Below are positions 3,841 through 60,040 of a stretch of 64,000 bases of DNA, piece after piece (the first letter of the stretch is position 1; each line of letters begins with the position of its first letter). The notes below the pieces were generated by a model, which had not been told where the DNA came from, ran no database searches, and worked only from the letters and a program-made list of their open reading frames with translations. The position numbers were made by a program, and so were the translations under genes. Source of the stretch: Nannocystis pusilla (GTDB lineage Bacteria > Myxococcota_A > Polyangia > Nannocystales > Nannocystaceae); the NCBI RefSeq assembly GCF_049337375.1, contig NZ_JBMPIV010000001.1. The stretch is one strand, 5' to 3'.

Positions 3841-3845
3841 TCATC

Positions 3846-4454: not shown

Positions 4455-4522
4455 CGTGCCGGCGAATGTGCCACGGGCCGGCGCGCAGGGGCGCGCACGG
4501 CCGCTTTCCCGGCGCGCGCGAT

Positions 4523-5023
4523 TCAGGTCGGCGCGAGGCGGACGGTGACCTCTGCGCTCGGATCGAAGGGCGAGCCCTTGACGTCGGCGATGCATTTGAC
4601 GACGAGCCGCACCCGCGGATCACGGGTGGCGGCGTTCGGGTCGGGGAAGCCGTTGCGCGCGAGGATGCCGGCGAGGTCGACCTCGCTCACCATCCACGGC
4701 TGGGTGATGACCTGCCCGGGCTTGAGATCGCAAGGCATCTTGAGGCAGCTGTCCGAGTAGCTGACGTTCGGATCGGGATCCTTCTCGGCGCGGGCGAGGT
4801 TCGGCGAGTCGATGTCGTCCTTCTTGATGTACAGCCACACCTCGTACTTGGTCGCCAGCAAGGTGCACTCCTGCTGCGCGGTGATCACCATGGTGCCCTT
4901 GAGGACGGAGTCGGTGACCGGGAAGGTGGCGGTCTCCGCCGGTTGACGCTCGATGACCGTGATGGCGACGCTCGCCATGTTCTTGCCGCCGAGGAACTGC
5001 TTGGCCTTGTCGAAGAATCCCAT
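4523..5023 (-). CDS. hypothetical protein
   Basis: ORF 4523-5197. Start placed at the internal Met (MGFFDKAKQFLGG...). Coding-like composition, no recognisable family. Confidence 0.4.
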   Translation of the reverse strand: MGFFDKAKQFLGGKNMASVAITVIERQPAETATFPVTDSVLKGTMVITAQQECTLLATKYEVWLYIKKDDIDSPNLARAEKDPDPNVSYSDSCLKMPCDLKPGQVITQPWMVSEVDLAGILARNGFPDPNAATRDPRVRLVVKCIADVKGSPFDPSAEVTVRLAPT

Positions 5024-6296: not shown

Positions 6297-6540
6297 TCCT
6301 GTCGACGACGGCCGCCCCGGGCGGCGCGTCGCGACTGTCACGAACGGTTGTGGACGATGCAGTCGACGACGGCCGCTGATGCGGAGCGTCGCGGGCTGTC
6401 ACGAGCGGTGGGTTGTGGGCGATGCAGTCGACGGCGGCCGCTGATGCGGAGCGTCGCGGGCTGTCACGAGCGGTGGGTTGTGGGCGATGCGGTCGACGAC
6501 GGCCGCTGATGCGGAGCGTCGCGGGCTGTCACGAGCGACG
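6297..6540. repeat. tandem repeat, about 65-bp unit x about 3.7 copies (gcagtcgacgacggccgctgatgcggagcgtcgcgggctgtcacgagcggtgggttgtgggcgat)
   Basis: Direct tandem copies are readable in the sequence and in the repeating spurious ORF translations (..TAADAERRGLSRAVGCGRC..). Lies between the tetR stop and the AKR start. Confidence 0.85.
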
Positions 6541-8992: not shown

Positions 8993-9395
8993 GTGATGCG
9001 CCCCGCTGCGTTGCGTCGCTCGCAGCTCGAAAAAAAGCGGTCTTCGAGAGGGCCGAGTCATGCGCTGGGCTGCGTTGCGGGCGTCGCTCGCAGCTCCAAA
9101 AAGAACGGCCTTCGGAAGGCCGAGTCATGCGCTGGGCTGCGTTGCGGGCGTCGCTCGCAGCTCCAAAAAGAACGGCCTTCGGAAGGGCCGAGTCATGCGC
9201 TGGGCTGCGTTGCGGGCGTCGCTCGCAGCTCCAAAAAGAACGGCCTTCGGAAGGCCGAGTCATGCGCTGGGCCGCGTTGCGGGCGTCGCTCGCAGCCCGG
9301 AAAAAAAGCGGCCTTCCGGAGGAAGGACTCTGTCATGCGCTGCGCTGCGTTGCGGTGACTTCGTCGCTCGCTGCGCGAAGAAAAAGCGCGACCCT
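8993..9395. repeat. tandem repeat array, about 67-68-bp unit x about 6 (..gtcatgcgctgggctgcgttgcgggcgtcgctcgcagctccaaaaagaacggccttcggaaggccga..)
   Basis: Each unit contains two hairpins (gctgcg..cgcagc and ggccttcggaaggcc). On the minus strand each unit reads as hairpin then TTCTTTTT, i.e. terminator-like. Repeating translations (MRWAALRASLAAPKRTAFGR..) in the spurious ORFs confirm the periodicity. Confidence 0.85.
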
Positions 9396-19418: not shown

Positions 19419-19490
19419 CGGGACATGTCCTCGGGGGCATGTCTGTAAGGGCATGCGCTGGCGCGCATGTCCATGAGGACATGTCGTCTC
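19419..19490. repeat. CATG-core 14-bp repeat array (gggacatgtcctcg ggggcatgtctgta agggcatgcgctgg cgcgcatgtccatg aggacatgtcgtct)
   Basis: Five phased units, seen in sequence. Confidence 0.85.
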
Positions 19491-25997: not shown

Positions 25998-26741
25998 CTA
26001 CGCCAGTTGTGTGATCATATCGCGGACGGCAAAGGCTTTTATGCATTGACCAAGATTGAGCGCCGTCGCACCTGCTTGGTACACCTCTGAGAAGATCCCC
26101 AAGAGGTGCAGACGCGTTCTACCGGCCATGAATGTTCCGTGTTTATCCGTGTAATTCCCGCGATCGAACAGCAGGACGGGGCCGCCCGAGTTGCCACGGA
26201 ATCCTGCGATGTCGATCAAGAATTCGGCTCTCCCTCGCCAATCGACCCATAGCGGTACCGCGGTCGTTCCACGGCGCGCGACCGGCAAGTAGTTTACCTC
26301 ATCGTAGAAACCATAGGGATAGCCGATCAGCGTAACGGATTCGATGCCCGCACACTGCTGTTCCAACTGAACATTATCTAAGACGTCGTTGAAACTGAAT
26401 GAAGCGAAATCGAGCATATCCGCATTCAACCCGTAACGAACGATAATCGAGGCGAAGGATAATATGCAGAGATCAAGACCGCCGGGGTGATCAATCCAGT
26501 CACTCCGGAGCGTGATGAGGCGCTGGAGATCCGTGCTTCCTCGAAGGTGCATGAAGAATTCGATGCTCGATGCACCGTCGACGACATGGCGATTTGTGAC
26601 GAGGAATGTGTTTGCGGGCGAGCATTTCGGGTCGGACGCGACAAAAAAACTTGTTCCTGTAGTCGCGTCCGTCCGAGGGAGGACGGTGGTATAGAACAAT
26701 CGGGCAGCGAAGTCGGCGCACATGATTGCACCTTGGCACAA
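25998..26741 (-). CDS. trypsin-like (S1/chymotrypsin-fold) serine peptidase, no signal peptide, in a low-GC island
   Basis: Catalytic triad context: ..VTNRHVV.. (His), ..LDLCIL.. (Asp), ..GNSGGPVL.. (Ser, GDSGG-like). Local GC is about 52% against about 70% in the flanks. Confidence 0.7.
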   Translation of the reverse strand: MCQGAIMCADFAARLFYTTVLPRTDATTGTSFFVASDPKCSPANTFLVTNRHVVDGASSIEFFMHLRGSTDLQRLITLRSDWIDHPGGLDLCILSFASIIVRYGLNADMLDFASFSFNDVLDNVQLEQQCAGIESVTLIGYPYGFYDEVNYLPVARRGTTAVPLWVDWRGRAEFLIDIAGFRGNSGGPVLLFDRGNYTDKHGTFMAGRTRLHLLGIFSEVYQAGATALNLGQCIKAFAVRDMITQLA

Positions 26742-26829
26742 GGGGCATACGCCACGGCGTACCGCTCGCGGAACGCGCTCGGTAGGCGTTCTGGGGAGTC
26801 GCCAATCGGATGGCGCCGTGCCGGCGCGA

Positions 26830-28275
26830 TCAGCCCGGCGGGGGGGTGACGCTCTTGAGCTGGCCGCCGGTCATGTCGGAGTAGACGTAGTGGTCGCCGG
26901 CGACGGGGATGTTCTGCATCGCCGGGACGTTGAGCGGGTCGATCTTCCAGGCCCAGCCCTGCTGGTCGACCAGCCACACGAAGCCGTCGACGTCGACGCT
27001 GACGCCGATCGGGGTCGAGCACTGGGCGAGGGTGTGCTGGGCGACGAGAGTGCGGGTGGGGACGTCGATCTCGACGAGGCCGCAGGGGCTGTTCGAGGCG
27101 ACCCAGGCGTGGTCGTCGTGGTCGATGGCCATGCCGCGGTGACAGGCGTTGGTGCCGGCGACCGAGATCCACTGGCTGGTGGCGACGTCGTAGGTCGAGA
27201 CGGGACCGGAGCAGCCGGCGAGCCACGGGTTGCCGTTGCGATCGACGGTCATGCCGTAGGTCTGGATGTTGGAAGGCTGGGGGATCCGCGTGAGCGTGAT
27301 CGGGTTCTCGTTGGCGTTGACGCGCGCGAGCTCGCCGCGCAAACCGGTGAACCAGGCGTTGCCCAGCGGATCGAGGGCGCCGCCGTAAGGGGCGTAGCCG
27401 CTGCCGTTCCACGCCACGGCCTCGAGCGACTGCTCCATCACGCCGGTGGCGCCGTCGAGCCGGACCATGTTGGCAGAGCCGGCCTGGAGGGCGCCGAAGC
27501 CGAGCCAGACCTTCTGGTTCTTGTACGTGCAGGTGGCCTTGTCGTAGTCGCCGATGGTCCAGGTGATGCCGCGCGGACCCTCGATGTACTGGCCCGACCA
27601 GTTGGCGTGGACGAGGGTCCACACGACGCACTCGTCGGTGCCCCACGGCTTGATGTCGGCGACGCTGGTGGAGGTGGTGATCTGGCCGTCGCCGTTGAAG
27701 TCGATGCAATCGGCGATGTTGGCGGCGACGGCGGTGGAACGCCCGGTGCCGCGCGCGTTGACGACGACGAACCGTCCGTCGCCCGAGACGGCGGTGCGCG
27801 AGACGCTCTCGGCGGCGCCGCTCGGACCGGTGAGGTAGCGCGCCTCCTCGACGAGGGTGCGCGTGTTGATCTTGGAGACGAGGCCGTCGCTGGTGGCGGG
27901 GATCCAGATGAAGCTCTCGTCGATGTCCATGTCGCCGGCGCAGCCCATGCCGCCGTCAGGCGTGACGCCGAGGTCGAACTTGGGGCCGCCGTTGGTGGTC
28001 GGGCTCGACATCGAACCGTTGGTGGTGGTCGGCGGGTCGCCGCTGGCGCTCTCGGTCTGACCGACAGTGCCGTCGGTGCCCTCGCTGGCGCTCATCGAAC
28101 CCCCCTGCGTGGGGTCCGTCATGGTGGTCTCGGGCGGCAGGGTGAGGCTGCCGATGCTGGTCGCCACGGTGGTCGGAGCCGTGGCGCTGGCCGAGTCGGC
28201 GCGCCCGCTGTCACCGCAGGCGACGAGGAGACCGGCGACGGCCATGGATGCGACCGGAAAACGAGGGGAGACCAT
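26830..28275 (-). CDS. hypothetical lipoprotein with predicted beta-propeller-like repeat region and Thr/Ser-rich linker
   Basis: LLVACG lipobox, T/S/G-rich linker, long C-terminal region rich in G/W/N/D with repeated ..G..W.. segments. Confidence 0.55.
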   Translation of the reverse strand: MVSPRFPVASMAVAGLLVACGDSGRADSASATAPTTVATSIGSLTLPPETTMTDPTQGGSMSASEGTDGTVGQTESASGDPPTTTNGSMSSPTTNGGPKFDLGVTPDGGMGCAGDMDIDESFIWIPATSDGLVSKINTRTLVEEARYLTGPSGAAESVSRTAVSGDGRFVVVNARGTGRSTAVAANIADCIDFNGDGQITTSTSVADIKPWGTDECVVWTLVHANWSGQYIEGPRGITWTIGDYDKATCTYKNQKVWLGFGALQAGSANMVRLDGATGVMEQSLEAVAWNGSGYAPYGGALDPLGNAWFTGLRGELARVNANENPITLTRIPQPSNIQTYGMTVDRNGNPWLAGCSGPVSTYDVATSQWISVAGTNACHRGMAIDHDDHAWVASNSPCGLVEIDVPTRTLVAQHTLAQCSTPIGVSVDVDGFVWLVDQQGWAWKIDPLNVPAMQNIPVAGDHYVYSDMTGGQLKSVTPPPG

Positions 28276-33530: not shown

Positions 33531-35114
33531 TCAGCGCGGCTCGTCGTCGGGGCAGACGAAGCGCTCGAAGCGGCGGGCGAGCACCGAGTCGGGCAGGCGC
33601 GCGGCCAGGCGCTGGGCGGCGGCCGCGGCGTCGGCGAGGCGGCCTTGCAGGCACAGGAGCTCGACCCCGGCGGCCTCGCGGGCGTCGAGGAGGGCGCCGC
33701 TCGGGAACTGGCGCGCGTGGGCGTCGAGGAGCTGGGCGGCGCCCGCCGGGTCGCGGGCGTCGAGGCGGGCGCGGGCGCGGTCGAGGAGGCCGACCTCGCG
33801 GGCGAGGTCGTCGCGGGCGGGCGAGCGCGCGGATGTCTCTCGGGACAGCAGCTGATCGTAGGCCGGGCGGGTGAGGGAAGCGGGGGAGGCTGTCCTCGGG
33901 GATAGGTCGGGCGCGGGGCTCGGCGACAGGGGGGCGGTCGCGCGGGTCCACAGGTCGGCGATCTGCGCGCGCAGGTGGGCGAACGAGAACGGGGAGGTGG
34001 GGAGCTGGAGCGCGGCCGCGGGCGAGGCTGGCTCTCGGGACATGTCGGCGGTCACCGGGGAGGCTGGCTCTCGGGACATGTCGGAGGTCACCCGGGATGC
34101 TGGCTCTCGGGACATGTCGGAGATCGGTCGATGGACTGTCTTTCGAGACATGTCCTCGCGCGAGGGATAGGCTGTCTCTCGGGTCGCGTCGGAGGGCCGG
34201 AGAGAGGCTGTCTCTCGAGACGCGCCGGAAGACCGGGGAGAAGCTGTCTCGCGGGACACGTCCGAGGGCCGGGGAGAGGCTGTCTCTCGGGCCGCGTCGA
34301 CGGGCCGGGGAGAGGCTGTCTCGCGGGACATGCCGCCGGTCGCGCGGGCGCTGGCTGTCCTCGCGGACAGGTCCTCGACCTGGGCGGCGGCCCGGCCCGG
34401 GGCCTGGCGGGGGGCGACCGCGACGACGGTGGTCGCGCCGGCGACGACGAGGGTGGTCATGACGCCGGCGCGCGCGGTCGTCCATGCGGCGGCGATCGTG
34501 GCGAGCTTGCCGGGGCCGAACAGCGGGACCATCACGGCCCAGGTGCGCGAGGCGGCGCCTTCCGGGGGGGCCTCGCGGCGGCGGGTTTCGGCGACCTCGG
34601 CGGCCAGCAGCTCGGGGCTGGCGGCCAGCTCGAGCAGGCGGGCGCGCGCGAGCCGGAGCCGCGAGTAGACGGTGTTGAGCGGCAGCTCGAGCTCGGCGGC
34701 GATCTCGGGGCCGCTCATGCCGAGCAGCTCGGTCAGCTCCCACACCTCGCGGGTGCCGCGAGGCAGGCCGGCGAGCAGGCGCTCGAGCAGGCGGGCGGCG
34801 TCGTGGCGCTCCTGCGGGGCCTCGCCGACGTGGCCGGTGAGGTCGCCGAGGGCGGCGATCCGGCGGGTCCGGCGGGCGACGCCGCGGTGCCAGTGCGAGG
34901 CGACGCGGCGGGTGACGCCGTACAGCCAGGCGCGCGCCGAGACCTGGTAGTGGACCTGGTCGAAGCGGCGGTAGGCGGTGAGGAAGACGTCCTGGACCAC
35001 GTCGTCGCGGGCGGCCGCGGGGACGCCGAAGTGCTTCGCGGCCGACCACACGAAGTGGAACTCGCGGTCGTAGATGGCGCGAAAACGCGCTTCCCGGTCG
35101 GTGGCGAGCAGCAT
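33531..35114 (-). CDS. ECF sigma-70 factor fused in-frame to a transmembrane anti-sigma-like C-terminal region carrying a 12-aa tandem repeat
   Basis: Start MLLATDREARFRAIYDREF. Sigma region 2 (DDVVQDVFLTAYRRFD) and region 4 (GLPRGTREVWELTELLGMSGPEIAAELELPLNTVYSRL). Then a TM segment (LATIAAAWTTARAGVMTTLVVAGATTVVAVA), about 8.5 copies of a 12-aa repeat (S/TRETASPRPSDA -> DMSREPASPVTA) and an Ala/Leu-rich C-terminal domain. Confidence 0.7.
   Translation of the reverse strand: MLLATDREARFRAIYDREFHFVWSAAKHFGVPAAARDDVVQDVFLTAYRRFDQVHYQVSARAWLYGVTRRVASHWHRGVARRTRRIAALGDLTGHVGEAPQERHDAARLLERLLAGLPRGTREVWELTELLGMSGPEIAAELELPLNTVYSRLRLARARLLELAASPELLAAEVAETRRREAPPEGAASRTWAVMVPLFGPGKLATIAAAWTTARAGVMTTLVVAGATTVVAVAPRQAPGRAAAQVEDLSARTASARATGGMSRETASPRPVDAARETASPRPSDVSRETASPRSSGASRETASLRPSDATRETAYPSREDMSRKTVHRPISDMSREPASRVTSDMSREPASPVTADMSREPASPAAALQLPTSPFSFAHLRAQIADLWTRATAPLSPSPAPDLSPRTASPASLTRPAYDQLLSRETSARSPARDDLAREVGLLDRARARLDARDPAGAAQLLDAHARQFPSGALLDAREAAGVELLCLQGRLADAAAAAQRLAARLPDSVLARRFERFVCPDDEPR
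34022..34335. repeat. 36-bp tandem repeat x about 8.5 inside the sigma/anti-sigma CDS (..ggctggctctcgggacatgtcggcggtcaccgggga..), each unit containing the gggacatgtc core
   Basis: Seen in sequence. Encodes the 12-aa peptide repeat. Confidence 0.85.
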
Positions 35115-35152
35115 GGGGCCGTGGGGGCTGTCCCCGGCCGAGACGGTTTCCG

Positions 35153-36229
35153 TCACCGCGGGTCTCCGAGGCGCAATTCGAGGCCGAGGAGCAGGCGCAG
35201 GCTCGCAGGCGCGCTGGTGAACAGGTTGACCGGCTCCGGGGTGTCCGCCAGGTCGAAGCTCGGGGCGGCCAGGCGGACGAGGCCCTGGGCGGCCAGGCTG
35301 AGGCCGAGGAGCCGGTGAAACCGCCAGGTGGCGCCGGCCGAGACGAGCACCGCCGCCCACAGGCCGGTGGCCGCCCGCGCGCCCGGACCGCGACCCTGGC
35401 CGCGCAGGCCGCCGAGCTCGGCGCCGCCGCACAGCGGGAACTCGAAGCGGCCGCGGGCCAGGCGAGCGCAGCCGCGGGCGCCGCCGCCGAGCAGGTAGAC
35501 GCGGACCTCGTTGGGCAGGCGCGCCTCGGTCTGCGGGACGAGGTGGACGCCGTGGAACTCGAGGCGAGCGCGGCGCCAGAGGACGCCGGCGACGAGCTCG
35601 AGCGCGGCGGTCGGCGCAGGGACGGTGCCGACCTCGAAGCCGGCCGAGAGACGGAGCAGCGCGCCAGGGCCTCGCTTGCGCGGGGGCGGGGCCGGGGCGA
35701 GCGGCTCGTCGGCGGTGAGGACGGCGGGCTCGGGCGCGGGCGCGGGCGACTGGACCGGGGCGACGGGGTCGTCGACGACGGCCTCGGGGGCGAGCGCGAC
35801 GGGCGGGGCGGGTTCGGGACCGGGGCTCGGCTCGGGAGGCGGGTCCGGCTCGGTCGGCGCGGGCTCGAGCTCCGGCTCGATCCGATCGGTCGACCGCTCG
35901 GCGGCGGTGGGATCGAGCGCGAGGGCGGTCAGGAGCGCGGCAGCGTCGACCAGGGCGGCGCAGCGGCGAGCGCTGAGGCGCCGGGTCTGGGCGTGGCCGC
36001 CGACGGTGAGGCGCAGGTCGAGGTGGTAGTGCGCGGCGGCGTCACGCTCGACCCGCCCGACCAGAGCGACCTCGTCGGGGGCGGGCTCGCGGCCGAGGCG
36101 GTCCGCGATCGCCCTGGCCAGCGCGCGGCGATCGGGGCAGCCCGCCGGCGCCTGCCACACGATCGCGCCCGCGGACGGGGGCTGGGGCACCTGGAACGCG
36201 AGCACTGCGGCGAGGAGCGCGGACGGCAT
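35153..36229 (-). CDS. hypothetical protein (about 358 aa) downstream of the di-haem peroxidase gene
   Basis: C-terminal part of ORF 35153-38125, starting at MPSALLAAVLAFQVPQPP. The remaining N-terminal part of that ORF is an alternative frame of the peroxidase gene. Confidence 0.5.
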   Translation of the reverse strand: MPSALLAAVLAFQVPQPPSAGAIVWQAPAGCPDRRALARAIADRLGREPAPDEVALVGRVERDAAAHYHLDLRLTVGGHAQTRRLSARRCAALVDAAALLTALALDPTAAERSTDRIEPELEPAPTEPDPPPEPSPGPEPAPPVALAPEAVVDDPVAPVQSPAPAPEPAVLTADEPLAPAPPPRKRGPGALLRLSAGFEVGTVPAPTAALELVAGVLWRRARLEFHGVHLVPQTEARLPNEVRVYLLGGGARGCARLARGRFEFPLCGGAELGGLRGQGRGPGARAATGLWAAVLVSAGATWRFHRLLGLSLAAQGLVRLAAPSFDLADTPEPVNLFTSAPASLRLLLGLELRLGDPR

Positions 36230-49127: not shown

Positions 49128-49149
49128 TCAATGTCTCCTGGGACAGGGT

Positions 49150-50093
<944 letters not shown>

Positions 50094-50097
<4 letters not shown>

Positions 50098-52001
50098 GCG
50101 GGGGGGAAAGAGTACCCCTCGGCGAGCGCGTTGGCGACCTCGGTATAGGCGTAATCGCTGACGCGTTCGTCGATGCGCATGCGCAGCAGCGCCTTGCTGC
50201 GGCAGGTGGCCGCGAAGAAGAACGCGCGATCGTCGGCGCACGCGCGCGCGAGCGCCGGATCGGCGGCCCAGCGGTCCCACTCGCGCTGGCAGATCCGCCG
50301 CACCGCGGGCCACAGGACGTCGGGAGCGGGGCCGCCGGCGTCGTCGACCCAACCGATCACAGCCGCGAGGTGGGCGTGTACGAGGGTGTGCAGCAGCTTG
50401 CCCTGCGCCTCGGCGAGGTCGGAGGTCAGGGTGAAGGAGTCGGGCGCGAGCGCGGGAGCGTGGCCGGCCGCGGCCAGCCGCCCGCGGTGGAGCCGCACGC
50501 CGCCGAGGTCGCGGACGACGAAGCCGCAGGGGCGCCCGGCGTGGACGAGGAGGGTGTTTTGCAGGTGCGCCTCGAGGGCGACGCCGTGGGCGGTGAGCAG
50601 GCGCAGGGCCGCGGGGACGAGGAGGTCGAGGTAGTCGCGGAAGAAGGCCGCGAGGCGCGCGCGCAGATCGCCGGGGTAGTCGGCGGCGAGCTCGCGCAGC
50701 ACGAGATCGCCGCCGGGCCGGCGCTCGCCGAGAGCGGCGCAGACGACGAGCTGCGGAGTGCGCGATTGGACATGCTTCAAAAAATCTGTCGCTCGGGACA
50801 GGTCCTCGGGGGCATGTCGTAAGGGGAATGTCGCGGAGGACAGGTCGGAAGGGGCAGGTGCGCCGGCGGGCGAGTCCGGAGCGGTCGGCGTCGCGTGGGA
50901 CGGGTCGGCGGGGGCGGCGAGGTCGGCGTGGAGCCGTCGGGCGAGGGCGGCGGGGTCGGGGCGGAGGACGACGCCGAGCTGGCCGGCGTCGGCGCCGTGG
51001 CGCGAGTGCAGGCCGGCGGCGGCGAGGTCGGGCTGGATCTGCAGGCCGCGGCGGGTCTGCGGGTCGGCGGCCTGGATCGCGGCCAGGAGGGCGGCGATCG
51101 CCGGGCCGTTGTGCACCGAGGCGGGCGAGACCTGGCGCCGCGCGCTGGTGGTGTGGATGTCGACGGCGAGCTTGAGGTGCAGCGCCGGCGCGGCGAGGGC
51201 GACGGTGCGCAGGCTGAGCAGGGCCCGCGCATGGAGCGGGGGCAGGCCGGCGGGGCGGACCTCGCGGCCCCACAGCGGGCCGAGCAGGCGCGGGAGGCGG
51301 CGCAGCTGGAGGGCGTGGACGGGGATGCGGACCAGGCCGGGCGGCGGGGCGGGGAAGAGGGCGCGGGCGAGGTCGGCATAGACGGCCGGCTCGGCCAGCT
51401 GGGCGTGCTCGGCGGCGACGTCGACGGCGTGGACTGCCGCCTGGGCCAGGAGGTCGGGGCCGTGGCGCAGGTTCTCCCAGGCGCGCAGGCCGAGCCGGGT
51501 CTTGCTCATCGGGTGCCACGGGTGGCCGTCGACGACCAGGTTCTCGGGGTCGAGCGGGGCGGGCCACGGCTGTCCTTCGGAGCATGTCCGATGGCGCAGG
51601 TCGGCGGCGAGGCGGGCGAGGGCGAGGTTCCAGCGGCTGTCGGCGAGCTCGCGCGCGATCCGGGCGCGGGCGGCGGGGGCGAGCGCGGGCAGGAGGCGCG
51701 GGAGCAGGTCGGGGAGGTCGGGGAGGTCGGCGCCGTCGAGGTCGGCGGCGTGCAGCTCGAAGGCCCGGCGCCGGCGCAGCGGGAGGCTCAAGGAACATGT
51801 GCGAAGGGACATGTCCTGGAGGTCGAACTCGACGAGGCGCTCGCGCGCGCAGGCGAGGACGAGGCGAGCGCCGATCGCCTGGGTGGCGGCCCGCCAGTGG
51901 GCGGCGAGCTCGCCGGGCGCGGGGCGGGCGCCGAACGCGGCAGGCACGGCCCGGGCGGCGAAGGCGAGGAAGCGGTCGCGCTCGGTGGATGGGGTGCTCA
52001 C
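50094..52001 (-). CDS. IucA/IucC-family (NRPS-independent siderophore synthetase-like) adenylating ligase with two in-frame repeat-derived insertions
   Basis: Conserved ..[14 protein letters not shown].., ..VHALQ.., ..[16 protein letters not shown].. and ..[11 protein letters not shown].. regions. Proposed GTG start at 52001 overlaps the stop of the upstream gene (GTGA). Inserts at 50767-50860 and 51790-51822 are CATG-repeat arrays. Confidence 0.65.
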
Positions 52002-52627
52002 GACGGACGAAGCATGGCCTCGACGCCGGACCAGGGCGCGGGCTCGAATTCCGCGGTCGGAACGACCTGTGACACCGCCCACTCGACGATCTGGGCTGGT
52101 CGGAGCGCGGGGAACGGCACCCGGACTTTCGGTGCGACCTCGAGGGTCGGGCCGACGTGGCAGTGCAAAGCGGCGTGACCGCAAGCGCCGAGGCCGTCGC
52201 GGTCGCCCTGCGGACGCTCGGCCGTTTGACGGTCGTGCGGAAGATGGATGGCCACGGCCCAGGGCGAGTTGTCGTGGCGCTGACCGCTGAGCATGATGTT
52301 GAGCTCCTGAAGGCGCTCGGCCCGGCGATCGAAGCGCAAGAGGACGGCGAGCCGGGCGCTGCGGAGAGCGACGGCGTCGTGCAGCGGTGGCGGTAACGTC
52401 GCCAGCTCGAGCTCTTCGCCGGCGCGCTCGCGGCCGAGGGTGTATTGGACGGAGGGACTCTGCGGGACCCGCCCCTCCACGAGGCGGGCCTGTGCGTCGC
52501 GGCGGAGCACAGCGTAGGGCTTTTCGGACAGCTTGCGCAGGACCTGGCGGACCTCGTTGGCGGCCTCGCGATCGTTCATGACGCGCAGCACCTGGTGTTG
52601 GCGGTAGAGCTCGACCCAGGGCCTCAT
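51998..52627 (-). CDS. hypothetical protein (209 aa), His-rich C-terminal half (..[20 protein letters not shown]..)
   Basis: C-terminal part of ORF 51998-53074 from [10 protein letters not shown]. Start overlaps the stop of the upstream gene (ATGA). Confidence 0.5.
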
Positions 52628-53166
52628 GTCTGCTCCAACGTCATGGCCCAGAAAGCACGGGTGTAGTTCTCTTGCGTGCGCGGGAGAAGACCTGCGCGCC
52701 ACGGGGCGAGCCAGTCCTCCGGAGATTGGCCGGTGTCGGTCGAGAACGCCGTGCGCTCGGCGTCGACGTCGAGTTCCGCGAGTTGTTCGGGATCGACGTC
52801 GCTGCCGCTGGCCCAACTCCAGGCGCTCGGAGCCTCGGTGGCGAGGGCGCGGTAACCATCGCCGTGGCGCAGCAAGAAGAGCACGATCGGCTGGGTGCGT
52901 GGAGGATTGAGCGCCTGATCGCGAGAGCCGTCGAGGTCGCGGACGACCTCGGCCTCGTCGACCGGGACGAGCAATGCCATGCGGTTCGGCTCGCGTAATG
53001 CGTCCGCGACGGAGGAGGTGCGAAAAGGCCTCGCGGCGGTGGACGCAAGGCTCTCGACCTCTCGCACTAGCCATTCGCGCAGGTCGAGATCGGGGCAGAT
53101 GACGATGGCCAGGCCGCCCGCGTCACGCGCAATCGCCCCGGCGAGAGCGATGCCGGGCTCACGCAT
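52624..53166 (-). CDS. hypothetical protein (180 aa)
   Basis: ORF 52624-53196. Start at MREPGIALAG, 2 bp after the ATPase stop. Confidence 0.5.
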   Translation of the reverse strand: MREPGIALAGAIARDAGGLAIVICPDLDLREWLVREVESLASTAARPFRTSSVADALREPNRMALLVPVDEAEVVRDLDGSRDQALNPPRTQPIVLFLLRHGDGYRALATEAPSAWSWASGSDVDPEQLAELDVDAERTAFSTDTGQSPEDWLAPWRAGLLPRTQENYTRAFWAMTLEQT

Positions 53167-54298
53167 GGCTCGCTCCGGCGAGCAACTTGCGCGCAAGGGG
53201 ATGGATGTCCATGACGTATCCAGCGGCGCGCTGGCGCTCGAGGATCACGCCGCGGGCGAGGAGACGGATCTTACGGCCGAGCTCCATCTCGCGGCCGTCA
53301 GTGCCCGCCACGCGTGCGATCGCGTCCGTGTCCCCGGGTAGCAGGGCGCGGCGGAAGCTGTCCTTCTGGTCATTGATCGCATCGATTAGATCCTGGCCGA
53401 GCGGCCAGTCGTCGCCGCGGCGGAGGAGTGCGTATTGCGCGGCGTCGGCCATGAGTTGAAGAAAGGTGCGAGGCAGGCCGCCGCTCCAGCGGGCGGCATC
53501 GAACACGCTGGCGCGGGAGGTGAGCTGCGACTCGTGGGCGAGCAACTGCTCCAGAGAAACTCCCAACCGCTGCGCGAGGATCTCCGCCAAAAACAATCGG
53601 CCCGGGGCATGCGTCGGGTCTTCGACTTCGGGTACGGGGACCGGCGCGAAGAGTGCGCCAGGGCGCACGGCGTCCTCGGAGGCCCCGAACGCGACGAACC
53701 ACGGGACGACCGCGATGATGTCGATGTCATCGCTCAGTTGGCCGAGGGTGGCGAGCGCCTCGGATGACTGCGGGCCCTCGGGCAGCTTCTCCAAACCGTC
53801 CAGTAGGAGCGTCAGTCGACGCGGGCCGGCGCGGCGCGCGAGTTCCTCGCGCGCCGCGTGTACCAGCGAGAGGGGGCTGCCCGTGAACGACGACGCTGGC
53901 ACTTGAAGGCCGGAGAGCAGGCTTGGCGTCGCCACTCCGGCCGCGTTCAAGGCGGTGACGAGCGCACTCGAGGGACGTATGCCGAGAGCGTCTCTGGCGA
54001 CTTCGACCATCCTCGCGGCGAGCCGCAGCAGCATCTGGTCGGCCGTGAGGCGCCGAATGTTCTCGAGTCGGTCGAACTGGACGAGACAAGCGAAGCGCGA
54101 GGTCTGTAACGCGTCGGCGATGCGCGCCAGCTCGGTGCTCTTTCCGACGCCGACAGGACCGCCGACGAGCACGGTGGATGTGCCGCTGGTGACGAGGCGG
54201 GCGATTCGCTCCGCATAACCGGAAGGGGGGACGACGTAGCCAGCCTCGCCCGGATCGAGCGGACGGTGAGGGGCCAGCGCCTTCCAGTTTAGGGTCAT
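53159..54298 (-). CDS. AAA+/P-loop NTPase (ORC/Cdc6- or STAND-like ATPase with C-terminal helical domain)
   Basis: Walker A LVGGPVGVGKSTEL. Walker B-like RRLTLLLDGLEKL. Start at MTLNWKALAP. Confidence 0.65.
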   Translation of the reverse strand: MTLNWKALAPHRPLDPGEAGYVVPPSGYAERIARLVTSGTSTVLVGGPVGVGKSTELARIADALQTSRFACLVQFDRLENIRRLTADQMLLRLAARMVEVARDALGIRPSSALVTALNAAGVATPSLLSGLQVPASSFTGSPLSLVHAAREELARRAGPRRLTLLLDGLEKLPEGPQSSEALATLGQLSDDIDIIAVVPWFVAFGASEDAVRPGALFAPVPVPEVEDPTHAPGRLFLAEILAQRLGVSLEQLLAHESQLTSRASVFDAARWSGGLPRTFLQLMADAAQYALLRRGDDWPLGQDLIDAINDQKDSFRRALLPGDTDAIARVAGTDGREMELGRKIRLLARGVILERQRAAGYVMDIHPLARKLLAGASHA

Positions 54299-54347
54299 GA
54301 GGTCTTTTTTCTTACCGCCTCGAGTGCAGGCGGTCAACGCGCGCCGC

Positions 54348-55055
54348 TCAGGCCGCGCGGCGGAGCTCGAGGCCGAGTTCGCCGAGCATGAGGGCGGCGG
54401 ACAGGAGCAGGATCCAGGCGATCCAGCGGCGCAGGCTGTCGGGGTCGAGGTCGCCGGTGCGGCGGGCGCCGAGGTTGGCGCCGAGCAGGGTGAGCGGGGT
54501 GACGACCGCGAAGGCGGTGAGGTCGATCTGTCCTTCGAGGAAGGTGGCGACGCCGGCCGACAGCCCGGTGACGGCGCCGATCGCCATGTTGGTGCCGACG
54601 GCCACGGGCGGCGGGACGCGGGCGTAGCGGATCATGGCCGGCAGGCGCAGGCTGCCGAGGAGGAGGCCGACGAGGCCCGAGATCGCGCCGAGGACGGCGC
54701 CGACGACGACCTCGGCGAGGACGGCGAAGGTGCGCGAAGGGACATGTTCGGAAGGACCGGCGGGCTCGGGCCGGCGGCGCAGCATGGCGGCGCCGGTGAG
54801 CAGGAGGACGCCGGCGATGGCGGCCTTGAGGAGGCGAGCGTCGACGCTGCCGGCCCAGCGCGCGGTGGCGAAGGCGGCGACGGCCGAGGGCGCGCCGACG
54901 CTGGCCAGCAGCCACAGGCTGACGCGGCCGTCGCGGGCGTGGCGCCAGGTGCCGACGAGGGTGCCGGCGGTGGAGATGGCGAGGCTGGTGGCGGCCCCGG
55001 CGACGGGGCTGCCGAGGACGTAGACGAGGAGGGCCACCCGCAGCTGACCGAGCAC
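54348..55055 (-). CDS. sulfite exporter TauE/SafE family membrane protein
   Basis: Two TSUP half-repeats with Gly-rich TM helices (..GAISGLVGLLLGS..). A repeat-derived in-frame insert (PSEHVPSRTF) lies at 54733-54760. Confidence 0.7.
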   Translation of the reverse strand: MLGQLRVALLVYVLGSPVAGAATSLAISTAGTLVGTWRHARDGRVSLWLLASVGAPSAVAAFATARWAGSVDARLLKAAIAGVLLLTGAAMLRRRPEPAGPSEHVPSRTFAVLAEVVVGAVLGAISGLVGLLLGSLRLPAMIRYARVPPPVAVGTNMAIGAVTGLSAGVATFLEGQIDLTAFAVVTPLTLLGANLGARRTGDLDPDSLRRWIAWILLLSAALMLGELGLELRRAA

Positions 55056-55277: not shown

Positions 55278-56132
55278 GTGTCGGCGGTGAAAGCCGGGAG
55301 GCGGCTTGACAGGCGGGCGCGCGCGGGCGGACGCTGCGGCGGCGTGACGGAGCGCGGGGACACTGCGGCGGCGGAGGAGCTCGCAACGGGGCTTCCGGGG
55401 CCGACGAGGCCGCGCTGGGTGGTGATCCACTGGACGCCGGAGGCGCTCGGGCTGGTGCGGGCGATCGCGGCGGCCGAGCCGGCGCCGGAGCTGACGCTGA
55501 TCGGGCCGGCGCCGGCCGAGGCGGTCGCGGCGGCGCTGGCCGAGTTGCCCGCGGGACATGTCCAAAAGTACTGGCAGGGCTCGGCGAGCGGCGGGGTCGA
55601 GGCGCTGGCGCGCTTCTTCGCCGATACCGCCGGGCTGCCGGCGGCCGACGCGATCATCGTGCTGCCGCTGCGCGGCCACGGCGAGACCGACGCGTTCTCG
55701 CGCCTGGTGTGCACGGCGATCCTGCGCGCGTGCAAGGGCAAGCCGCCGCACGTGGTGGTGGCGGTCGAGGACCCGGAGGCGACCCACGAATTCGAGGGCC
55801 TGGGCGTGGCGACGATCTTCTACCCGGGCTTTTTGCGCGCGGCCCTGCTGGCCCACGCGTGCGTCGATCTCGGGGCGTTCCGCTTCATGCTGGCGCTGCT
55901 CGGCGGGCGCCTGCGCGTCGAGACCTGGTCGGTGCCGCCGGAGCTGCGCGCGGGGACGTTCCGCGAGGCCTGCCTGAACGTGGAGGTCGACCGCCGCGGC
56001 CGCCCGGTGACGCTGATCGGGCTGTTCGCGCCCGGCGAGGGCGGGCCGGACGCGATGCTGCTGAGCCCGCCGCCCGCCCGCCCGCTGCGCGACGCGAGCG
56101 CGCTGCTGGTGCTGACCGGAGAGGCCGAGTGA
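55278..56132 (+). CDS. RCK/TrkA-like regulatory protein (TrkA-N Rossmann + TrkA-C)
   Basis: ..HVVVAVEDPEATHEFEGLGVATIFYPGFLRAALLAHA.. (RCK-N) and a C-terminal ..VTLIGLF..LVLTGEAE segment (TrkA-C-like). Start uncertain. Confidence 0.5.
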   Translation: MSAVKAGRRLDRRARAGGRCGGVTERGDTAAAEELATGLPGPTRPRWVVIHWTPEALGLVRAIAAAEPAPELTLIGPAPAEAVAAALAELPAGHVQKYWQGSASGGVEALARFFADTAGLPAADAIIVLPLRGHGETDAFSRLVCTAILRACKGKPPHVVVAVEDPEATHEFEGLGVATIFYPGFLRAALLAHACVDLGAFRFMLALLGGRLRVETWSVPPELRAGTFREACLNVEVDRRGRPVTLIGLFAPGEGGPDAMLLSPPPARPLRDASALLVLTGEAE

Positions 56133-56233: not shown

Positions 56234-56300
56234 CGGGGCATGTTCTCGCGGACATGGCCGATCATGCCTGTCCTTTTAGGCATGTTCCTGCAGACAGGTG
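56234..56300. repeat. CATG-core 14-bp repeat array overlapping the start of the channel gene (ggggcatgttctcg cggacatggccgat catgcctgtccttt taggcatgttcctg cagacaggtg)
   Basis: The ATG codons of MFSRTWPIMPVLLGMFLQ are the CATG cores of successive repeat units. Confidence 0.85.
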
Positions 56301-58564
56301 CGGCGCGGGCGGGCGAGGCGATCGTGGTCCGCTTCGGCTCGGGGGCGAAGAAGGGCGGGTTCGACGTGACGGCGCACGCGCTGGCCGAGGCGGTCCAGGG
56401 CGAGGGGCGGGTGACGATCGCGCCGGAGGCGACCCGGGGCTCGTGCGAGAACGTCCACAAGCTGCTGTCGGGCGAGCTCGACGCGGCGCTGGTGCAGTAC
56501 GACGTGGCGGCGGAGGCGTTCAAGGCCGGGCTGGCCGACGCAGACGCGGGCGACAGCGCGATCCCGAAGGGCGGGTGGATGTGCAAGCTGTCGCCCGAGG
56601 AGGCCGACAAGGCCGAGCTGCGGGTGATCGCGGCGGTGTCCGACGCGGCGGTCCACGTGCTGGTGCGCCGACCGGTGCGCCTCGACGACTTCGCCGAGAT
56701 CGGCCGCGAGCCGCTGTTCATGGGCAAGGACGGCTCGGGCAGCTACGAGACGGCGAAGGTGATCCTCGGCGCGGCCGGCCACACCGCGGAGCAGCTGCCG
56801 CTGTTCACGGGCACGGCCGACGAGGCGCTGGCGGCGATGAGCCGGCGCGAGCTGCTGACGATGCTGCGGACCACCGAGCCCGGGCACTCGGAGATCCGCG
56901 ACGTGCTGGCGTCGGGCCTGGCGACCCTGAACCCGCTGCCAGAGGCGGTGCTGAACCGCCTGATCGACGGCTACCCGTATTACCGGATCTGCCCGATCGA
57001 GACCGGGACCTATCCGGGCCTCGAGTACAGCATGCCGACGGTGTGCGTGAGCTCGGTGGTGCTGGTGGCGACGCCGCGCGAGCGGGTCGAAGACGAGGCC
57101 TTCCTCGCCGACCGCCGGCTGGCGGTCGAGGCGATGATCCACGGGCTCAAGAAGCTGGCGCGCGACCCGAAGTACGCGAGCCTCAAGGTCCGCGTGGAGT
57201 GGCGCGGGTTCGCCGAGCGCGAGCCGATCCCGCTCCACCCGGTGGCGGAGCTGCACGAGACCAGCGAGCGCCGGCAGGCGTGGCTGCAGGGCGGAGCGTT
57301 CGCGGCGGCGCTCGGGGTGGTGCTGTACCTGGTGCGCCGGGCGCTGCGGCGGCGGCGGGTCCCCGGCGCGGGGATCGAGAGCCAGCTGTCGAACCCGCTG
57401 GTGCCGTTCGCGGCGTTCGCCTGCGTGGTGACGCTGTCGACGTTCATCGTCTGGTCTTTGGAACATGACTCGAACGCCAGGCTGCGGACGCTGAACGACT
57501 CGTTCTGGGAGATGAACACGTTCGCCACCGGCAACTTCACGACCGAGACGCTGAAGACGCCGACGGCGCGGCTGGTCGGGGCGGCGGCGACGATCCTCGG
57601 GCTGGGCCTTTTGGCGTGGTTCACCGCGACGCTGACGAACATCTTCGCGCAGGAGCAGACCCGGCTGTGGCGGCGGCTCAACCGGCACCTGGTGGTGCTG
57701 AACTTCCGCGAGGACATGCTGCCGCTGATCCGGCTGCTGCGCAGCCCGGGGCCGACGCGGCACAGGCCGCTGCACGTGGTGGTGTCCGACGCGCTGCCGC
57801 GGCGGGTGCGGCTGCAGCTGGCGCGGGTCAAGGCGCTGACGATCCACCACTCGAACCCGGAGGTGCCGGAGGACCTGGCGGGGCTGCGGCTGCCGCGGGC
57901 GTCGCGGGTGATCGTGCTCGGCGACGGCGACGGGTCGGGGGCCAGCTACGATCCGCTGCGGATCGCCCGCGCGGTCCATCAGGCGTGCGCGCGCGACCCA
58001 CTCGGCGGCGGGCAGCGGGCGCGGACGCTCGGGGTGGCGGCGACGTCGGTCGAGATCGCCCGCACCGCGCCGGCGCTGCCGGTGACCCTAGTCGAGACGT
58101 CGGAGGCGGAGCGCGAGGAGGTGTTCTCGCCGTTCGCGGCCTGGCTGGTGCCGGTCGATTGCCAGGCGCTGGCGCACCGCTGGCTGGTGATGGCGTGCCG
58201 CGACCGCGCCTTCGCGGAGCTGTTCAACCGCGTGGTGGCGTTCGCCGACGACAACGCCGAGGTCTACACGGCGCCGGCACCGACCTGGCTCATCGGACAG
58301 CCGTGGCGCAAGGCCCGACGCGCGTTGCTCGAGGTGCAGGGCCGCGGCGGCGCGGTGCCCCTGGGGCTGTATCGCGCGGCCGATCCGGGCGGCAAGGCGC
58401 CGGCCGGCGGGACATCGCACGCGGAGTTGCGGCGGCGGCTGATCGTCAACCCGCGGCCGGACGAGACGCTGGTGCCGGGCGACCTGATCGTGGCGCTGTG
58501 CGAGGACGAGGCCGACTTGGTGCGGATCGTGGCCGAGAGCCGCAAGGCCGCGGCGCCGAGCTGA
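56240..58564 (+). CDS. fusion protein: TAXI-family (TRAP-associated) periplasmic solute-binding domain + two-TM ion-channel pore + C-terminal RCK-like domains
   Basis: ORF 55709-58564, start placed at MFSRTW (signal peptide). TAXI signature (..VRFGSGAKKGGFDVTAHALA..TRGSCENVHKLLSGELDAALVQYDVA..). Pore module TM1-pore helix-TM2 (..FIVWSL..NDSFWEMNTFATGNFTT..GAAATILGLGLLAWFTATLTNIF). RCK-like (..HVVVSDALP..VIVLGDGDGS..). The ORF's upstream 177 aa are Arg/Gly-rich, not coding-like. Confidence 0.65.
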   Translation: MFSRTWPIMPVLLGMFLQTGAARAGEAIVVRFGSGAKKGGFDVTAHALAEAVQGEGRVTIAPEATRGSCENVHKLLSGELDAALVQYDVAAEAFKAGLADADAGDSAIPKGGWMCKLSPEEADKAELRVIAAVSDAAVHVLVRRPVRLDDFAEIGREPLFMGKDGSGSYETAKVILGAAGHTAEQLPLFTGTADEALAAMSRRELLTMLRTTEPGHSEIRDVLASGLATLNPLPEAVLNRLIDGYPYYRICPIETGTYPGLEYSMPTVCVSSVVLVATPRERVEDEAFLADRRLAVEAMIHGLKKLARDPKYASLKVRVEWRGFAEREPIPLHPVAELHETSERRQAWLQGGAFAAALGVVLYLVRRALRRRRVPGAGIESQLSNPLVPFAAFACVVTLSTFIVWSLEHDSNARLRTLNDSFWEMNTFATGNFTTETLKTPTARLVGAAATILGLGLLAWFTATLTNIFAQEQTRLWRRLNRHLVVLNFREDMLPLIRLLRSPGPTRHRPLHVVVSDALPRRVRLQLARVKALTIHHSNPEVPEDLAGLRLPRASRVIVLGDGDGSGASYDPLRIARAVHQACARDPLGGGQRARTLGVAATSVEIARTAPALPVTLVETSEAEREEVFSPFAAWLVPVDCQALAHRWLVMACRDRAFAELFNRVVAFADDNAEVYTAPAPTWLIGQPWRKARRALLEVQGRGGAVPLGLYRAADPGGKAPAGGTSHAELRRRLIVNPRPDETLVPGDLIVALCEDEADLVRIVAESRKAAAPS

Positions 58565-58809: not shown

Positions 58810-59979
58810 ATGCGGGACGGGATGCTGCCCTCTCGTGTCGTTCTCGCGTGGTCTTCCGTGCTCGTCTTCGGCTGCTACTCGGGCGTCGCGGAGGTGACCG
58901 AGAGCATCGGCGCGCCCGAGACCGCGAGCGAGGCGACGAGCACCGGCGCGAGCGCGGCGAGCAGCGGACCGGGGACGAGCGACGCGAGCGCGCCGGGCAC
59001 CGGCGAGGCGTCGACCGCGGAGGCGCCGACGAGCACGAGCGTCGCGGAGACGACGACCACGGGGCCGGACGAGGTGTCCTCGGGGCCAGGTCCGACCGAC
59101 GGCGGGACGTCCGGCGCGGCCTCGACGACCACCGGCGACGTCAGCACCACCACCGGCGAGCCGGTCGATCCGGCGGCGGAGGTGTGCGCGCGCTGGACGG
59201 CGGACCGGACGGACATGTCCGAAGGGACATGGAGCGGGGCGGTCGCCGGCTGTCAGGCGGGCGACACCGGCGCGCCGGGCCGCGACAACGCGCTCAAGCT
59301 GATCAACCTGTACCGCTGGCTGGCCGGGCTGCCGGCGGTCGGGCACGACGCCGGGCTCGACGCCAAGGCCCAGCAGTGCGCGCTGATGATGCACGCCAAC
59401 GGGCAGTTGTCGCACGACCCGCCCATGCAGTGGGACTGTTACAGCGCCGACGGGGCGCAGGCGGCGAAGAACAGCAACATCTCGTCGACGCCGGGCGTGG
59501 TCGCGGTCGACCTCTACATGGTCGACCCCGGCAACGCGACGACCTTCGGCCATCGGCGGTGGATCCTCTCGAACGGGCTCGGGCCGGTCGGGCTCGGGTC
59601 GACGGCCGTCAACTCGTGCATGTGGGTGATCGGCGGGCAGGGCGGCGGCGACGCGGCGTGGACGGCCTGGCCGCCGCCCGGGGTGGTGCCGATCGACGCG
59701 ATCCACGTGCCCGAGGTGCCGTGGGCCAACGTCGACGAGACGGGCTGGACGATCCAGAGCGACGCGATCGACCTCGGCGCGGCGCAGGTGACGATCCGCG
59801 AGGGCGGGGTCGACCTGCCGGTGAAGACGACGGCGCTCATGGGCGGGTTCGGCTCGGCCAGCGCGGTCGCCATGACGCCGCAGGGCTGGACCTCGGAGGC
59901 CGGCAAGACCTACACGGTCGAGGTGAACGGGGTGCCGCAGCCGTTCGGCTACGAGGTGCAGGTGGTCGCCTGTCCCTGA
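58810..59979 (+). CDS. CAP/SCP (PR-1-like) domain lipoprotein with Thr/Ser-rich linker
   Basis: VFGCYSG lipobox. CAP motifs (..NLYRWLAGLP.., ..GHRRWILS.., ..MQWDCYSA..). In-frame repeat-derived insert DRTDMSEGTW at 59218-59245. Confidence 0.7.
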   Translation: MRDGMLPSRVVLAWSSVLVFGCYSGVAEVTESIGAPETASEATSTGASAASSGPGTSDASAPGTGEASTAEAPTSTSVAETTTTGPDEVSSGPGPTDGGTSGAASTTTGDVSTTTGEPVDPAAEVCARWTADRTDMSEGTWSGAVAGCQAGDTGAPGRDNALKLINLYRWLAGLPAVGHDAGLDAKAQQCALMMHANGQLSHDPPMQWDCYSADGAQAAKNSNISSTPGVVAVDLYMVDPGNATTFGHRRWILSNGLGPVGLGSTAVNSCMWVIGGQGGGDAAWTAWPPPGVVPIDAIHVPEVPWANVDETGWTIQSDAIDLGAAQVTIREGGVDLPVKTTALMGGFGSASAVAMTPQGWTSEAGKTYTVEVNGVPQPFGYEVQVVACP

Positions 59980-60040
59980 GGGACATGTCCGAACGGGCAT
60001 GGCCGAACGGGCATGTCCCGACGAGCATGCTCGATCAGGC
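59978..60040. repeat. CATG-core 14-bp repeat array (agggacatgtccga acgggcatggccga acgggcatgtcccg acgagcatgctcga) starting at the CAP gene stop
   Basis: Four phased units, seen in sequence. Confidence 0.85.

Follow-up and report, generated by a model that had tools for sequence, protein, structure and literature searches.

The 64,000-nucleotide stretch of the Nannocystis pusilla genome analysed here (contig NZ_JBMPIV010000001.1, referred to below as the window; G+C 72%) carries on its minus strand a gene for an extracytoplasmic function (ECF) sigma factor, and inside that gene lies a tandem repeat that is read in frame and whose units belong to a 14-bp DNA family also found in spacers and in several unrelated genes. 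The initial annotation had described CATG repeats placed in frame within this sigma factor fusion, and the array is there as claimed, with a period of 36 bp, 8.8 copies and 75% matches by Tandem Repeats Finder (TRF), inside a single open reading frame (ORF). The features of the locus are the following.

33531-35114, minus strand: ECF sigma factor gene with a C-terminal extension, a single ORF of 527 aa.
34014-34329, minus strand: in-frame tandem repeat, 36 bp x 8.8, encoding 12-aa units, about ten of them in register (aa 262-367 of the ECF protein).
34413-34463, minus strand: membrane helix, aa 218-234.
Protein positions aa 227-431 and aa 432-518: disordered linker and conserved helical C-terminal domain, respectively.
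34353-34373, minus strand: isolated module DLSARTA (GAC CTG TCC GCG AGG ACA GCC), upstream of the array, 11.7 bits.
33888-33908, minus strand: isolated module DLSPRTA, downstream of the array, present in most Nannocystis orthologues.
33831-33851, minus strand: isolated module LLSRETS, just before the C-terminal domain, with QLLSRETS conserved in orthologues.

Pfam matches to Sigma70_r2 and Sigma70_r4_2 cover aa 15-160 of the protein, and an AlphaFold2 model shows a folded sigma domain followed by a helix at aa 203-226, a linker at aa 227-431 that covers the array and has a predicted local distance difference test score (pLDDT) of 30-43, and, at pLDDT 78-97, a helical domain at the C-terminus. 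The protein is a fusion: its ECF sigma domain is followed by a single membrane helix and by a helical, folded domain; the last is conserved across the Nannocystaceae and looks like the outer part of an anti-sigma factor. About ten units can be set in register on the minus strand, from GMSRETASPRPV, DAARETASPRPS and DVSRETASPRSS at one end to DMSREPASRVTS, DMSREPASPVTA and DMSREPASPAAA at the other. The older units read xxSRETASPRPS and the four youngest DMSR(K/E)..., three of these four, DMSREPAS(R/P)VT(S/A), being nearly identical. Each 36-bp unit opens with one canonical unit of the 14-bp family: in seven units the first 14-mer reaches 8.3-14.3 bits against a position weight matrix (PWM) of the family, and four units hold a perfect GACATGTC. 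Codons ending in A or T (CGA, TCT, ACA, CCA) make up 26% of the array, compared with 3.6% of the remaining gene.

Orthologues of the ECF gene from every sampled Nannocystis species are single ORFs (with one exception, P0007, which is seemingly frameshifted), and they keep the frame through the segment that joins the membrane helix to the C-terminal domain, a linker of 81 to 217 aa. All of these linkers carry D[LM]SxETA modules (GAC MTG TCC nnn GAG ACA GCC), in two to four copies in distant Nannocystis species and in seven to about ten in the window and in strain RBIL2, and the upstream module DLSARTA is kept as DLSxxT. ECF homologues at 52-57% identity have no such modules. One could suppose that the arrays are really intergenic and that the ORFs spanning them are annotation artefacts, chance read-throughs that join a sigma factor to its anti-sigma factor, or two IucA halves in the gene described below. 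Arrays are indeed stop-free in most frames and may fuse ORFs by chance, and of six automatic 'in-frame' calls on metagenome contigs, two turned out to be shadow-frame artefacts. Yet the frame survives ECF arrays of differing length in all aligned Nannocystis species but P0007; codon-position GC under a three-periodic model assigns one and the same coding phase to the two flanks of the array (33534-34023 and 34368-35157), the signal being lost only within it; a membrane helix lies upstream of the array and a folded domain downstream; and the IucA_IucC and FhuF domains are always found in one protein, modelled with confidence on either side of its insert. An artefact of this kind is thus barely credible. 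The ECF array is translated, sits in a permissive segment, varies among strains and bears the compositional mark of a non-coding repeat family.

The unit of that family is a 10-bp palindrome, GGACATGTCC, plus four variable bases, laid head to tail with a 14-bp period (consensus nnGGACATGTCCnn). GACATGTC occurs 28 times in the window, against 0.5 expected, and the spacings between CATG words are 14 bp in 37 cases, 28 bp in 21 and 42 bp in 14, with none of 13 bp and two of 15 bp. With a weight matrix trained on units that have another CATG at ±14 bp, and codon shuffles as background, there are 34 arrays of at least two units (4.2 in shuffles), 14 arrays of at least three (0.07) and 32 single units of at least 14 bits (1.85). 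Units at this last threshold reach 2.1 per kb in spacers and 0.15 per kb in coding sequence, with about 0.03 per kb expected by chance. Intergenic arrays adjoin stop codons and occupy tandem and convergent spacers, none being present in about seven divergent spacers, and they form strong hairpins (RNA fold z = -3.3 to -6.7). Two of them served as references.

59979-60034: four units that take up exactly the spacer separating the stop codons of two convergent genes; z = -4.7 and -3.3 for the RNA fold.
19419-19488: five units separating convergent genes; z = -4.2 and -5.3 for the RNA fold.

The first of these is found with three to six units at the same site in six species, its cores kept and its spacers variable. 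In N. punicea, in the region orthologous to 59950-60040, the last 57 bp or so of the neighbouring CAP gene are tripled together with the first unit, ahead of a normal array. The core GGACATGTCC contains no stop codon in any of its six frames, as seen both by direct reading and in virtual translations, and this is why units can be translated inside genes: depending on frame, it reads D-M-S, T-C-P or H-V-P. The segments within genes share one DNA family with the intergenic CATG arrays and are read in frame, in all three frames, as had been suggested. The family is also restricted to a lineage, since the 14-bp periodicity at the IucA locus is found in six of six Nannocystis genomes (6-14 CATG pairs per 21 kb), as against 0-1 pairs at 14 bp in 12 loci from other Nannocystaceae, Enhygromyxa and Plesiocystis. 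An Rfam scan of the whole window gave no match, viral contigs scanned for GACATGTC-N6-GACATGTC gave five isolated matches, no arrays and no link to phages, and a search of a literature library found no account of CATG arrays in Nannocystis.

The second large intragenic array lies in a gene for an IucA/IucC-like protein, which carries three members of the family.

50766-50863, minus strand: seven-unit 14-bp array, the longest in the window, encoding aa 381-413 between the IucA_IucC and FhuF domains.
51791-51818, minus strand: two-unit doublet (13.1 + 16.0 bits) encoding DMSLRTCSL in the N-terminal domain.
51578-51591, minus strand: single unit (13.3 bits) encoding RTCSE.

The first two correspond to sites that the initial annotation had assigned to the repeat, and both are genuine members. 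By TRF (period 14) and by chaining of PWM hits, the large array resolves into two 42-bp (14-aa) modules preceded by a partial unit. Since a 14-bp unit does not divide into whole codons, each unit is read in another frame than the one before it, through frames 1, 2 and 3, and the product is D[LM]S-xx-T[FC]P-xx-H[AV]P-x with a 14-aa period. A comparison of the loop in 59 homologues places its growth along the lineage: homologues of 45-57% identity have a loop of 28-43 aa without the motif, those of 63-67% identity have one 14-aa module (EDMSxETFPxGHAPE), those of 74-81% have 1-1.5 modules, and those of 84-97% have two modules and a Pro/Ala-rich extension, a series of 0, 3 and 6 units. Orthologues from outside Nannocystis lack the array. 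The best match among the compared genomes has 94% identity. At the DNA level the cores are kept across species, and it is the 4-nt spacers and their residues that vary; A/T-ending codons amount to 39% of the array against 5% of the rest of the gene. The AlphaFold2 model has a mean pLDDT of 91, and aa 373-412 form its only internal segment of low confidence (pLDDT below 50), with no secondary structure over aa 364-417. A search of solved structures gave distant, fragmentary matches to AsbB and AcsD with about 60 extra query residues between the matched blocks, which does not place the insert precisely.

The smaller members in this gene behave differently in the model. The idea that the repeat is tolerated in loops and linkers agrees with the ECF linker and the IucA loop, but not with the doublet at 51791, which is part of a confident beta-hairpin, or with the unit at 51578, which stands at the end of a long helix (H110-142). 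Six of seven genomes have the same DNA at the doublet, rare codons CTT, ACA, TGT and TTG included, while the flanking codons vary synonymously, and ACA TGC of the unit at 51578 is kept in all species. A frame-shifted IucA array in N. pusilla Na p29 (L002, NZ_JAPNKE010000002.1) was considered as proof that the peptide is unconstrained and was rejected: tblastn hits are split in four of eight conserved genes of that assembly, which probably has indel errors, and for this reason its frame-shifted reading is not relied on. Next to the IucA gene, at 52001-54337, a two-gene block encoding a 209-aa protein and a STAND/AAA_16-type NTPase separates it from the TauE gene; the block is present in the window, in Na p29 and in N. 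punicea (L004) and absent from four other Nannocystis genomes, and represents an insertion/deletion island.

Further units are found as small sites within genes or across their ends.

54738-54751, minus strand: single unit (14.0 bits) encoding EHVPSRTF in the central loop of TauE, conserved in six species.
55552-55565, plus strand: single unit (14.7 bits), GGA CAT GTC, encoding GHV in the gene at 55278-56132.
56234-56303, plus strand: five-unit array over the start codon and signal peptide (MFSRTWPIMPVLLGMFLQTG) of an NMT1_3-domain membrane protein.
59209-59236, plus strand: doublet (17.5 + 5.0 bits) encoding DMSEGTW in a CAP-domain lipoprotein.
49139-49166, minus strand: doublet over the stop codon of a ribose-phosphate pyrophosphokinase-like gene, giving the tail ...AGHVL-stop, in six species.
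3527-3550, plus strand: first units of an array, which provide a Mur-ligase-family gene with its tail ...EGRDMPEGT and its TGA stop.

The TauE, 55552 and CAP sites had all been attributed to the repeat, and rightly so. The initial annotation had also held that the N-terminus of a protein it called a channel is built from successive units, and five units do run across its ATG at 56234-56303; likewise, units supply the ATG starts at 56240 and 1448 and the C-terminal tails at 3550 and 49150. A further site assigned to the channel (57460-57475) has to be withdrawn, as it scores below 12 bits and encodes SLEHDSNARL, which is invariant in six species. The gene at 55278-56132, labelled an RCK protein, has no Pfam hit, and that label is unconfirmed.

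The IucA doublet and the TauE, 55552, CAP and 56234 sites occupy the same positions in all six species, and none of them shows a gain in length over the nearest outgroups. The expectation that alignment to orthologues would reveal lineage-specific inserts is borne out by the ECF modules and by the insert between the two IucA domains, and not by these small sites. Two metagenome contigs of a sister lineage, L030 and L031, are syntenic with 47-60 kb of the window. The TauE loop is equally long in this lineage, with CACCTGTCCC in L030 and no unit in L031; the start array at 56234 is in all six species, with a degenerate copy in L030 and a decayed one in L031; the CAP doublet, conserved in six species, is represented in L031 by AAC ATG TCT GAA GGG ACA TGG; and the rare codons GGA and CAT of the 55552 unit are kept in the six Nannocystis species and in both contigs. 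Units in L030 and L031 are mostly single, often with a CCTG/CAGG core instead of CATG, and tandem 14-bp arrays are rare there. As most units are single in these contigs, spacer arrays may have expanded in tandem only after the intragenic units arose.

Small sites may have originated in place, by substitutions or short-patch conversion in existing codons, driven by selection for a DNA or RNA site or by biased repair or uptake, as with the uptake sequences of Neisseria and Haemophilus or the HIP1 palindrome of cyanobacteria. We regard this as a serious possibility for the small sites, though somewhat less than an even one, and it is compatible with the explanation given below for the large arrays. 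Outgroup loops are equally long, and TauE reads P-PVPKRSL in L030 (CCT GTC CCG) where Nannocystis has EHVPSRTF (CAT GTC CCT); distant homologues of the IucA N-terminus have GDALxL where closer ones have GMSL or DMSL; units are also found in folded elements; and rare codons are conserved in the cores. The polarity at TauE and at the channel start would fit decay in the sister lineage equally well, L030 having a degenerate start array and L031 none, and gain in place leaves the 42-bp and 36-bp length gains unexplained.

The conservation of the cores is seen at the nucleotide level. At invariant residues of six genes, 10 of the 11 rare A/T-ending codons that lie inside cores are the same in all six species, compared with 14 of the 59 that lie elsewhere (Fisher p = 4e-5). 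This test replaced a comparison of synonymous conservation over all codons, which showed no difference (62% vs 61%), since codon bias is strong and synonymous variation correspondingly scarce. The sister lineage also retains GGA CAT GTC in the 55552 gene and GAA GGG ACA TGG in the CAP gene. Such conservation of rare codons suggests that the units act at the DNA or RNA level, and that cores are kept as sites for a dimeric protein or as hairpins and not for the peptide they encode. Between these two, the single conserved 10-bp palindromes lean towards a putative dimeric DNA-binding protein, since a lone 10-bp palindrome cannot make a useful hairpin; spacer arrays, too, make good hairpins. A more far-reaching proposal, which we put forward tentatively and consider rather unlikely, is that GGACATGTCC units are functional cis-elements of an undescribed system of the Nannocystis lineage, maintained by selection even in coding sequence. 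They could then be sites for a dimeric DNA-binding protein repeated every 14 bp, so that three sites would fall within four helical turns, or hairpins in the RNA by which the 3' ends of transcripts are marked.

The distribution of arrays among genomes bears on how they arose. In the syntenic 47-60 kb stretch, every array is at the same site, with a nearly equal number of units, in six species; N. pusilla, N. exedens, N. punicea and N. sp. RBIL2 are the relatives closest to the window genes. An active mobile element, similar to miniature transposable elements with inverted repeats (MITEs) or to repetitive extragenic palindromic (REP) sequences with their REP-associated tyrosine transposases (RAYTs), could in principle have produced intragenic copies as survivors of insertion. 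The very high copy number and dispersal would be expected of such an element, the absence of the IucA insert from outgroups indicates that it arose by gain of DNA, and, as in REP elements, the palindromic units fold as hairpins and adjoin the 3' ends of genes. Against this, no syntenic array is present in only some of the six species; no terminal inverted repeats or target-site duplications appear at the junctions read; there is no transposase among 24 proteins scanned with Pfam, 20 of them encoded in the window, other window genes being outside the scan; small intragenic sites have no length gain; the IucA array grew by duplication of an existing 42-bp module and not by new insertion; and viral contigs hold no arrays. 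We consider an active element unlikely, and the term 'invasive' used in the initial annotation finds no support in the sense of recent or ongoing insertion: to judge from the sequence comparison, the units are old, fixed features.

Independent cases were sought in high-GC metagenome contigs that carry the family, a scan that yielded mostly chance single matches and a handful of contigs rich in arrays. One of them is an Lhr helicase gene (L040, Ga0075163_10005689) with a 14/42-bp array at 2191-2271, between the DEAD and Helicase_C domains, and two in-frame repeats between winged-helix domains, one of 21 bp x 10 at 4430-4644 (ELSAGTG) and one of 36 bp x 3.3 at 5884-6001 (DMAAGTGQxGAx). The 36-bp unit of the latter, GGGGACAGGTCAGGCTGGCGCGGGGGACATGGCCGC, is composed of 14+14+8 bp and has the same period as the ECF repeat. 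Genes for an oxoprolinase, a ketoacyl-synthase-like protein and an NlpC/P60 protein have one three-unit (42-bp) array each, outside or between Pfam domains. These cases also speak to the notion that the ECF array is an ordinary low-complexity linker, a spacer duplicated at the protein level or a protease-sensitive region with a coincidental likeness to the CATG family. The segment is rich in Pro, Ser, Thr and Ala, disordered and variable in copy number, like many linkers, and the second half of its 36-bp unit is no clear family member. Coincidence is nonetheless very improbable, given that the array holds four perfect copies of a word expected 0.5 times per 64 kb, that unrelated proteins of different compartments contain DMS, TCP/TFP and HVP as readings of one DNA core, that rare codons make up 26% of the array against 3.6% of the rest of the gene, and that the same 36-bp solution appears in the unrelated Lhr gene.

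Taken together, the evidence favours, with a probability of roughly 0.7 in our estimation, a lineage-specific 14-bp repeat, old and fixed, that is translated in frame within genes and has grown there in frame-keeping steps. The repeat of Nannocystis and its closest relatives mostly occupies short spacers downstream of genes, with some copies in coding sequence. Within a gene, an array can be kept or lengthened only by increments that leave the frame intact, namely 42 bp (three units, 14 aa) in the IucA-like gene, a composite of 36 bp in the ECF linker and 21 bp in the Lhr gene of the metagenome contig. In the ECF gene, one canonical unit together with 22 bp of flanking sequence was amplified locally into about ten tandem 12-aa units, probably by slipped-strand events or unequal recombination, in a linker between the membrane helix and the C-terminal domain that is presumably periplasmic.

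Several points weigh against this explanation or against parts of it. The rare-codon test draws on 11 codons inside cores, and recurrent gene conversion between copies could keep cores alike without any function. The second 14-mer of the ECF unit (GAGACAGCC...) is weakly family-like, at 3.6-7.2 bits, so that a 14+14+8 origin leans mainly on the analogy with the Lhr case. The comparison covers one syntenic stretch of about 20 kb in six genomes and the ECF locus, and is not a genome census. Finally, two proteome-scale searches for further cases yielded nothing usable. A 23-position profile of the array peptide gave 44 matches among 1.84 billion representative proteins, which were discarded, most of them being arginine-rich shadow ORFs or unrelated eukaryote-like ORFs with 14-aa minisatellites; in a set clustered at 50% identity, inserts in conserved families are hidden, so this search is uninformative about breadth. 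A word-indexed search with a 28-row alignment of modules gave 53 candidates, none significant, as profiles so short fall short of significance in 5.8 billion sequences. In three eukaryote-like proteins of the representative library (P0241, P0248, P0250), long repeats of 14 aa follow the pattern DMSxxTCPxRHVx; they are minisatellites of 42 bp, unrelated to the family, that hit on a CATG-type core by chance.

Some other repeats and compositional features of the window lie outside the CATG family. Two tandem repeats in stretches that lack a coding signal are found at 9013-9355 (67 bp x 5.0, with the hairpin GGCCTTCGGAAGGCC) and at 6301-6537 (65 bp x 3.7, 96% matches). A third, at 3857-4112 (105 bp x 2.4), falls in the plus-strand coding region 3829-4407 and corresponds to a 35-aa protein repeat. 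The G+C content, 0.70-0.77 elsewhere, falls to 0.64 at 26001-28000.

The closest known parallel is with the Rickettsia palindromic elements (RPEs; Ogata et al. 2000, as summarised in PMC10969869), which are found in frame within unrelated genes. According to that summary, RPEs are dispersed palindromic repeats that also occur in non-coding DNA and add peptide segments at positions compatible with the fold. The 14-bp family is likewise dispersed, palindromic and multi-copy, it has in-frame copies in unrelated ORFs (ECF, IucA-like, TauE, CAP, PRPP synthetase-like and NMT1_3 genes in the window; Lhr, oxoprolinase, ketoacyl-synthase-like and NlpC/P60 genes elsewhere), and two of its inserts, in the IucA-like and ECF genes, are missing from related orthologues. 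An RPE, as described in the same summary, is a single element of about 100-150 bp with one conserved peptide, whereas the Nannocystis arrays consist of two to seven tandem 14-bp units read in three frames and expand only in 42-, 36- or 21-bp steps. On this criterion of size and peptide the 14-bp family is an analogue and not a member of the RPEs; there is no sequence relationship, and its host is free-living, with a genome of 11-13 Mb.

The REP/BIME/REPIN-RAYT systems, the subject of PMC3116915 and PMC3337134, are also short palindromes of very high copy number, placed in spacers by the 3' ends of genes, able to form hairpins, vertically inherited and lineage-specific. REPs are 20-40 bp long, often with a GTAG head, arranged in inverted doublets and extragenic by definition, in contrast to the perfect 10-bp palindrome and direct 14-bp register of Nannocystis. 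In the 14-bp family we found neither a 20-40-bp imperfect palindrome with a GTAG-type tetranucleotide nor an inverted REPIN doublet, all units being direct with two to seven per array, and no RAYT gene is present among the 24 Pfam-scanned proteins. Nor does the family have the marks of MITEs, which combine terminal inverted repeats and target-site duplications with presence/absence polymorphism; its sites are identical in the six species.

Uptake signal sequences (USS), DNA uptake sequences (DUS) and HIP1 are motifs of 8-12 bp that are over-represented by orders of magnitude, in coding DNA too. USS and DUS are non-palindromic and occur singly or in inverted pairs, and HIP1 is not known to form tandem arrays. 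The Nannocystis units resemble them in being less dense in coding sequence than in spacers, in occupying several frames and in constraining codon choice: they are over-represented in coding and non-coding DNA alike (0.15 per kb even in genes) and hold rare codons in place. They differ in their tandem, palindromic layout. Coding minisatellites, that is, variable-number tandem repeats in surface or linker regions of bacterial proteins, are comparable with the ECF array, which has a head-to-tail unit that is a multiple of 3 bp, copy-number differences between strains and a disordered linker as its setting. The ECF unit differs from these in having been seeded by a genome-wide non-coding repeat family and in a load of rare codons that is untypical of the host gene.

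The best-known instance of in-frame carriage of repeats is that of Rickettsia, whose life is obligately intracellular and whose genome is reduced; here it is found, with a very different element, in a myxobacterium that is free-living and has a genome of 11-13 Mb. The 14-bp unit leaves an easily recognised peptide signature, DMSxxTCPxxHVPx, and the limitation of growth to 42-, 36- and 21-bp steps makes selection for the reading frame readable from sequence. The IucA series (0, 3 and 6 units) and the strain-variable ECF linker constitute a dated natural record of the passage from a non-coding repeat to protein sequence. In practical terms, gene-calling and homology software will err on the starts, stops and linkers near such arrays. 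The family is also a tractable entry to a putative binding protein or transcript-end signal in Nannocystis. If the units were cis-elements, they would dictate DMS, TCP and HVP, hold rare codons across species and yield the periodic 12-aa and 14-aa peptides as a by-product, amounting to a second, nucleotide-level code laid over dozens to hundreds of genes.

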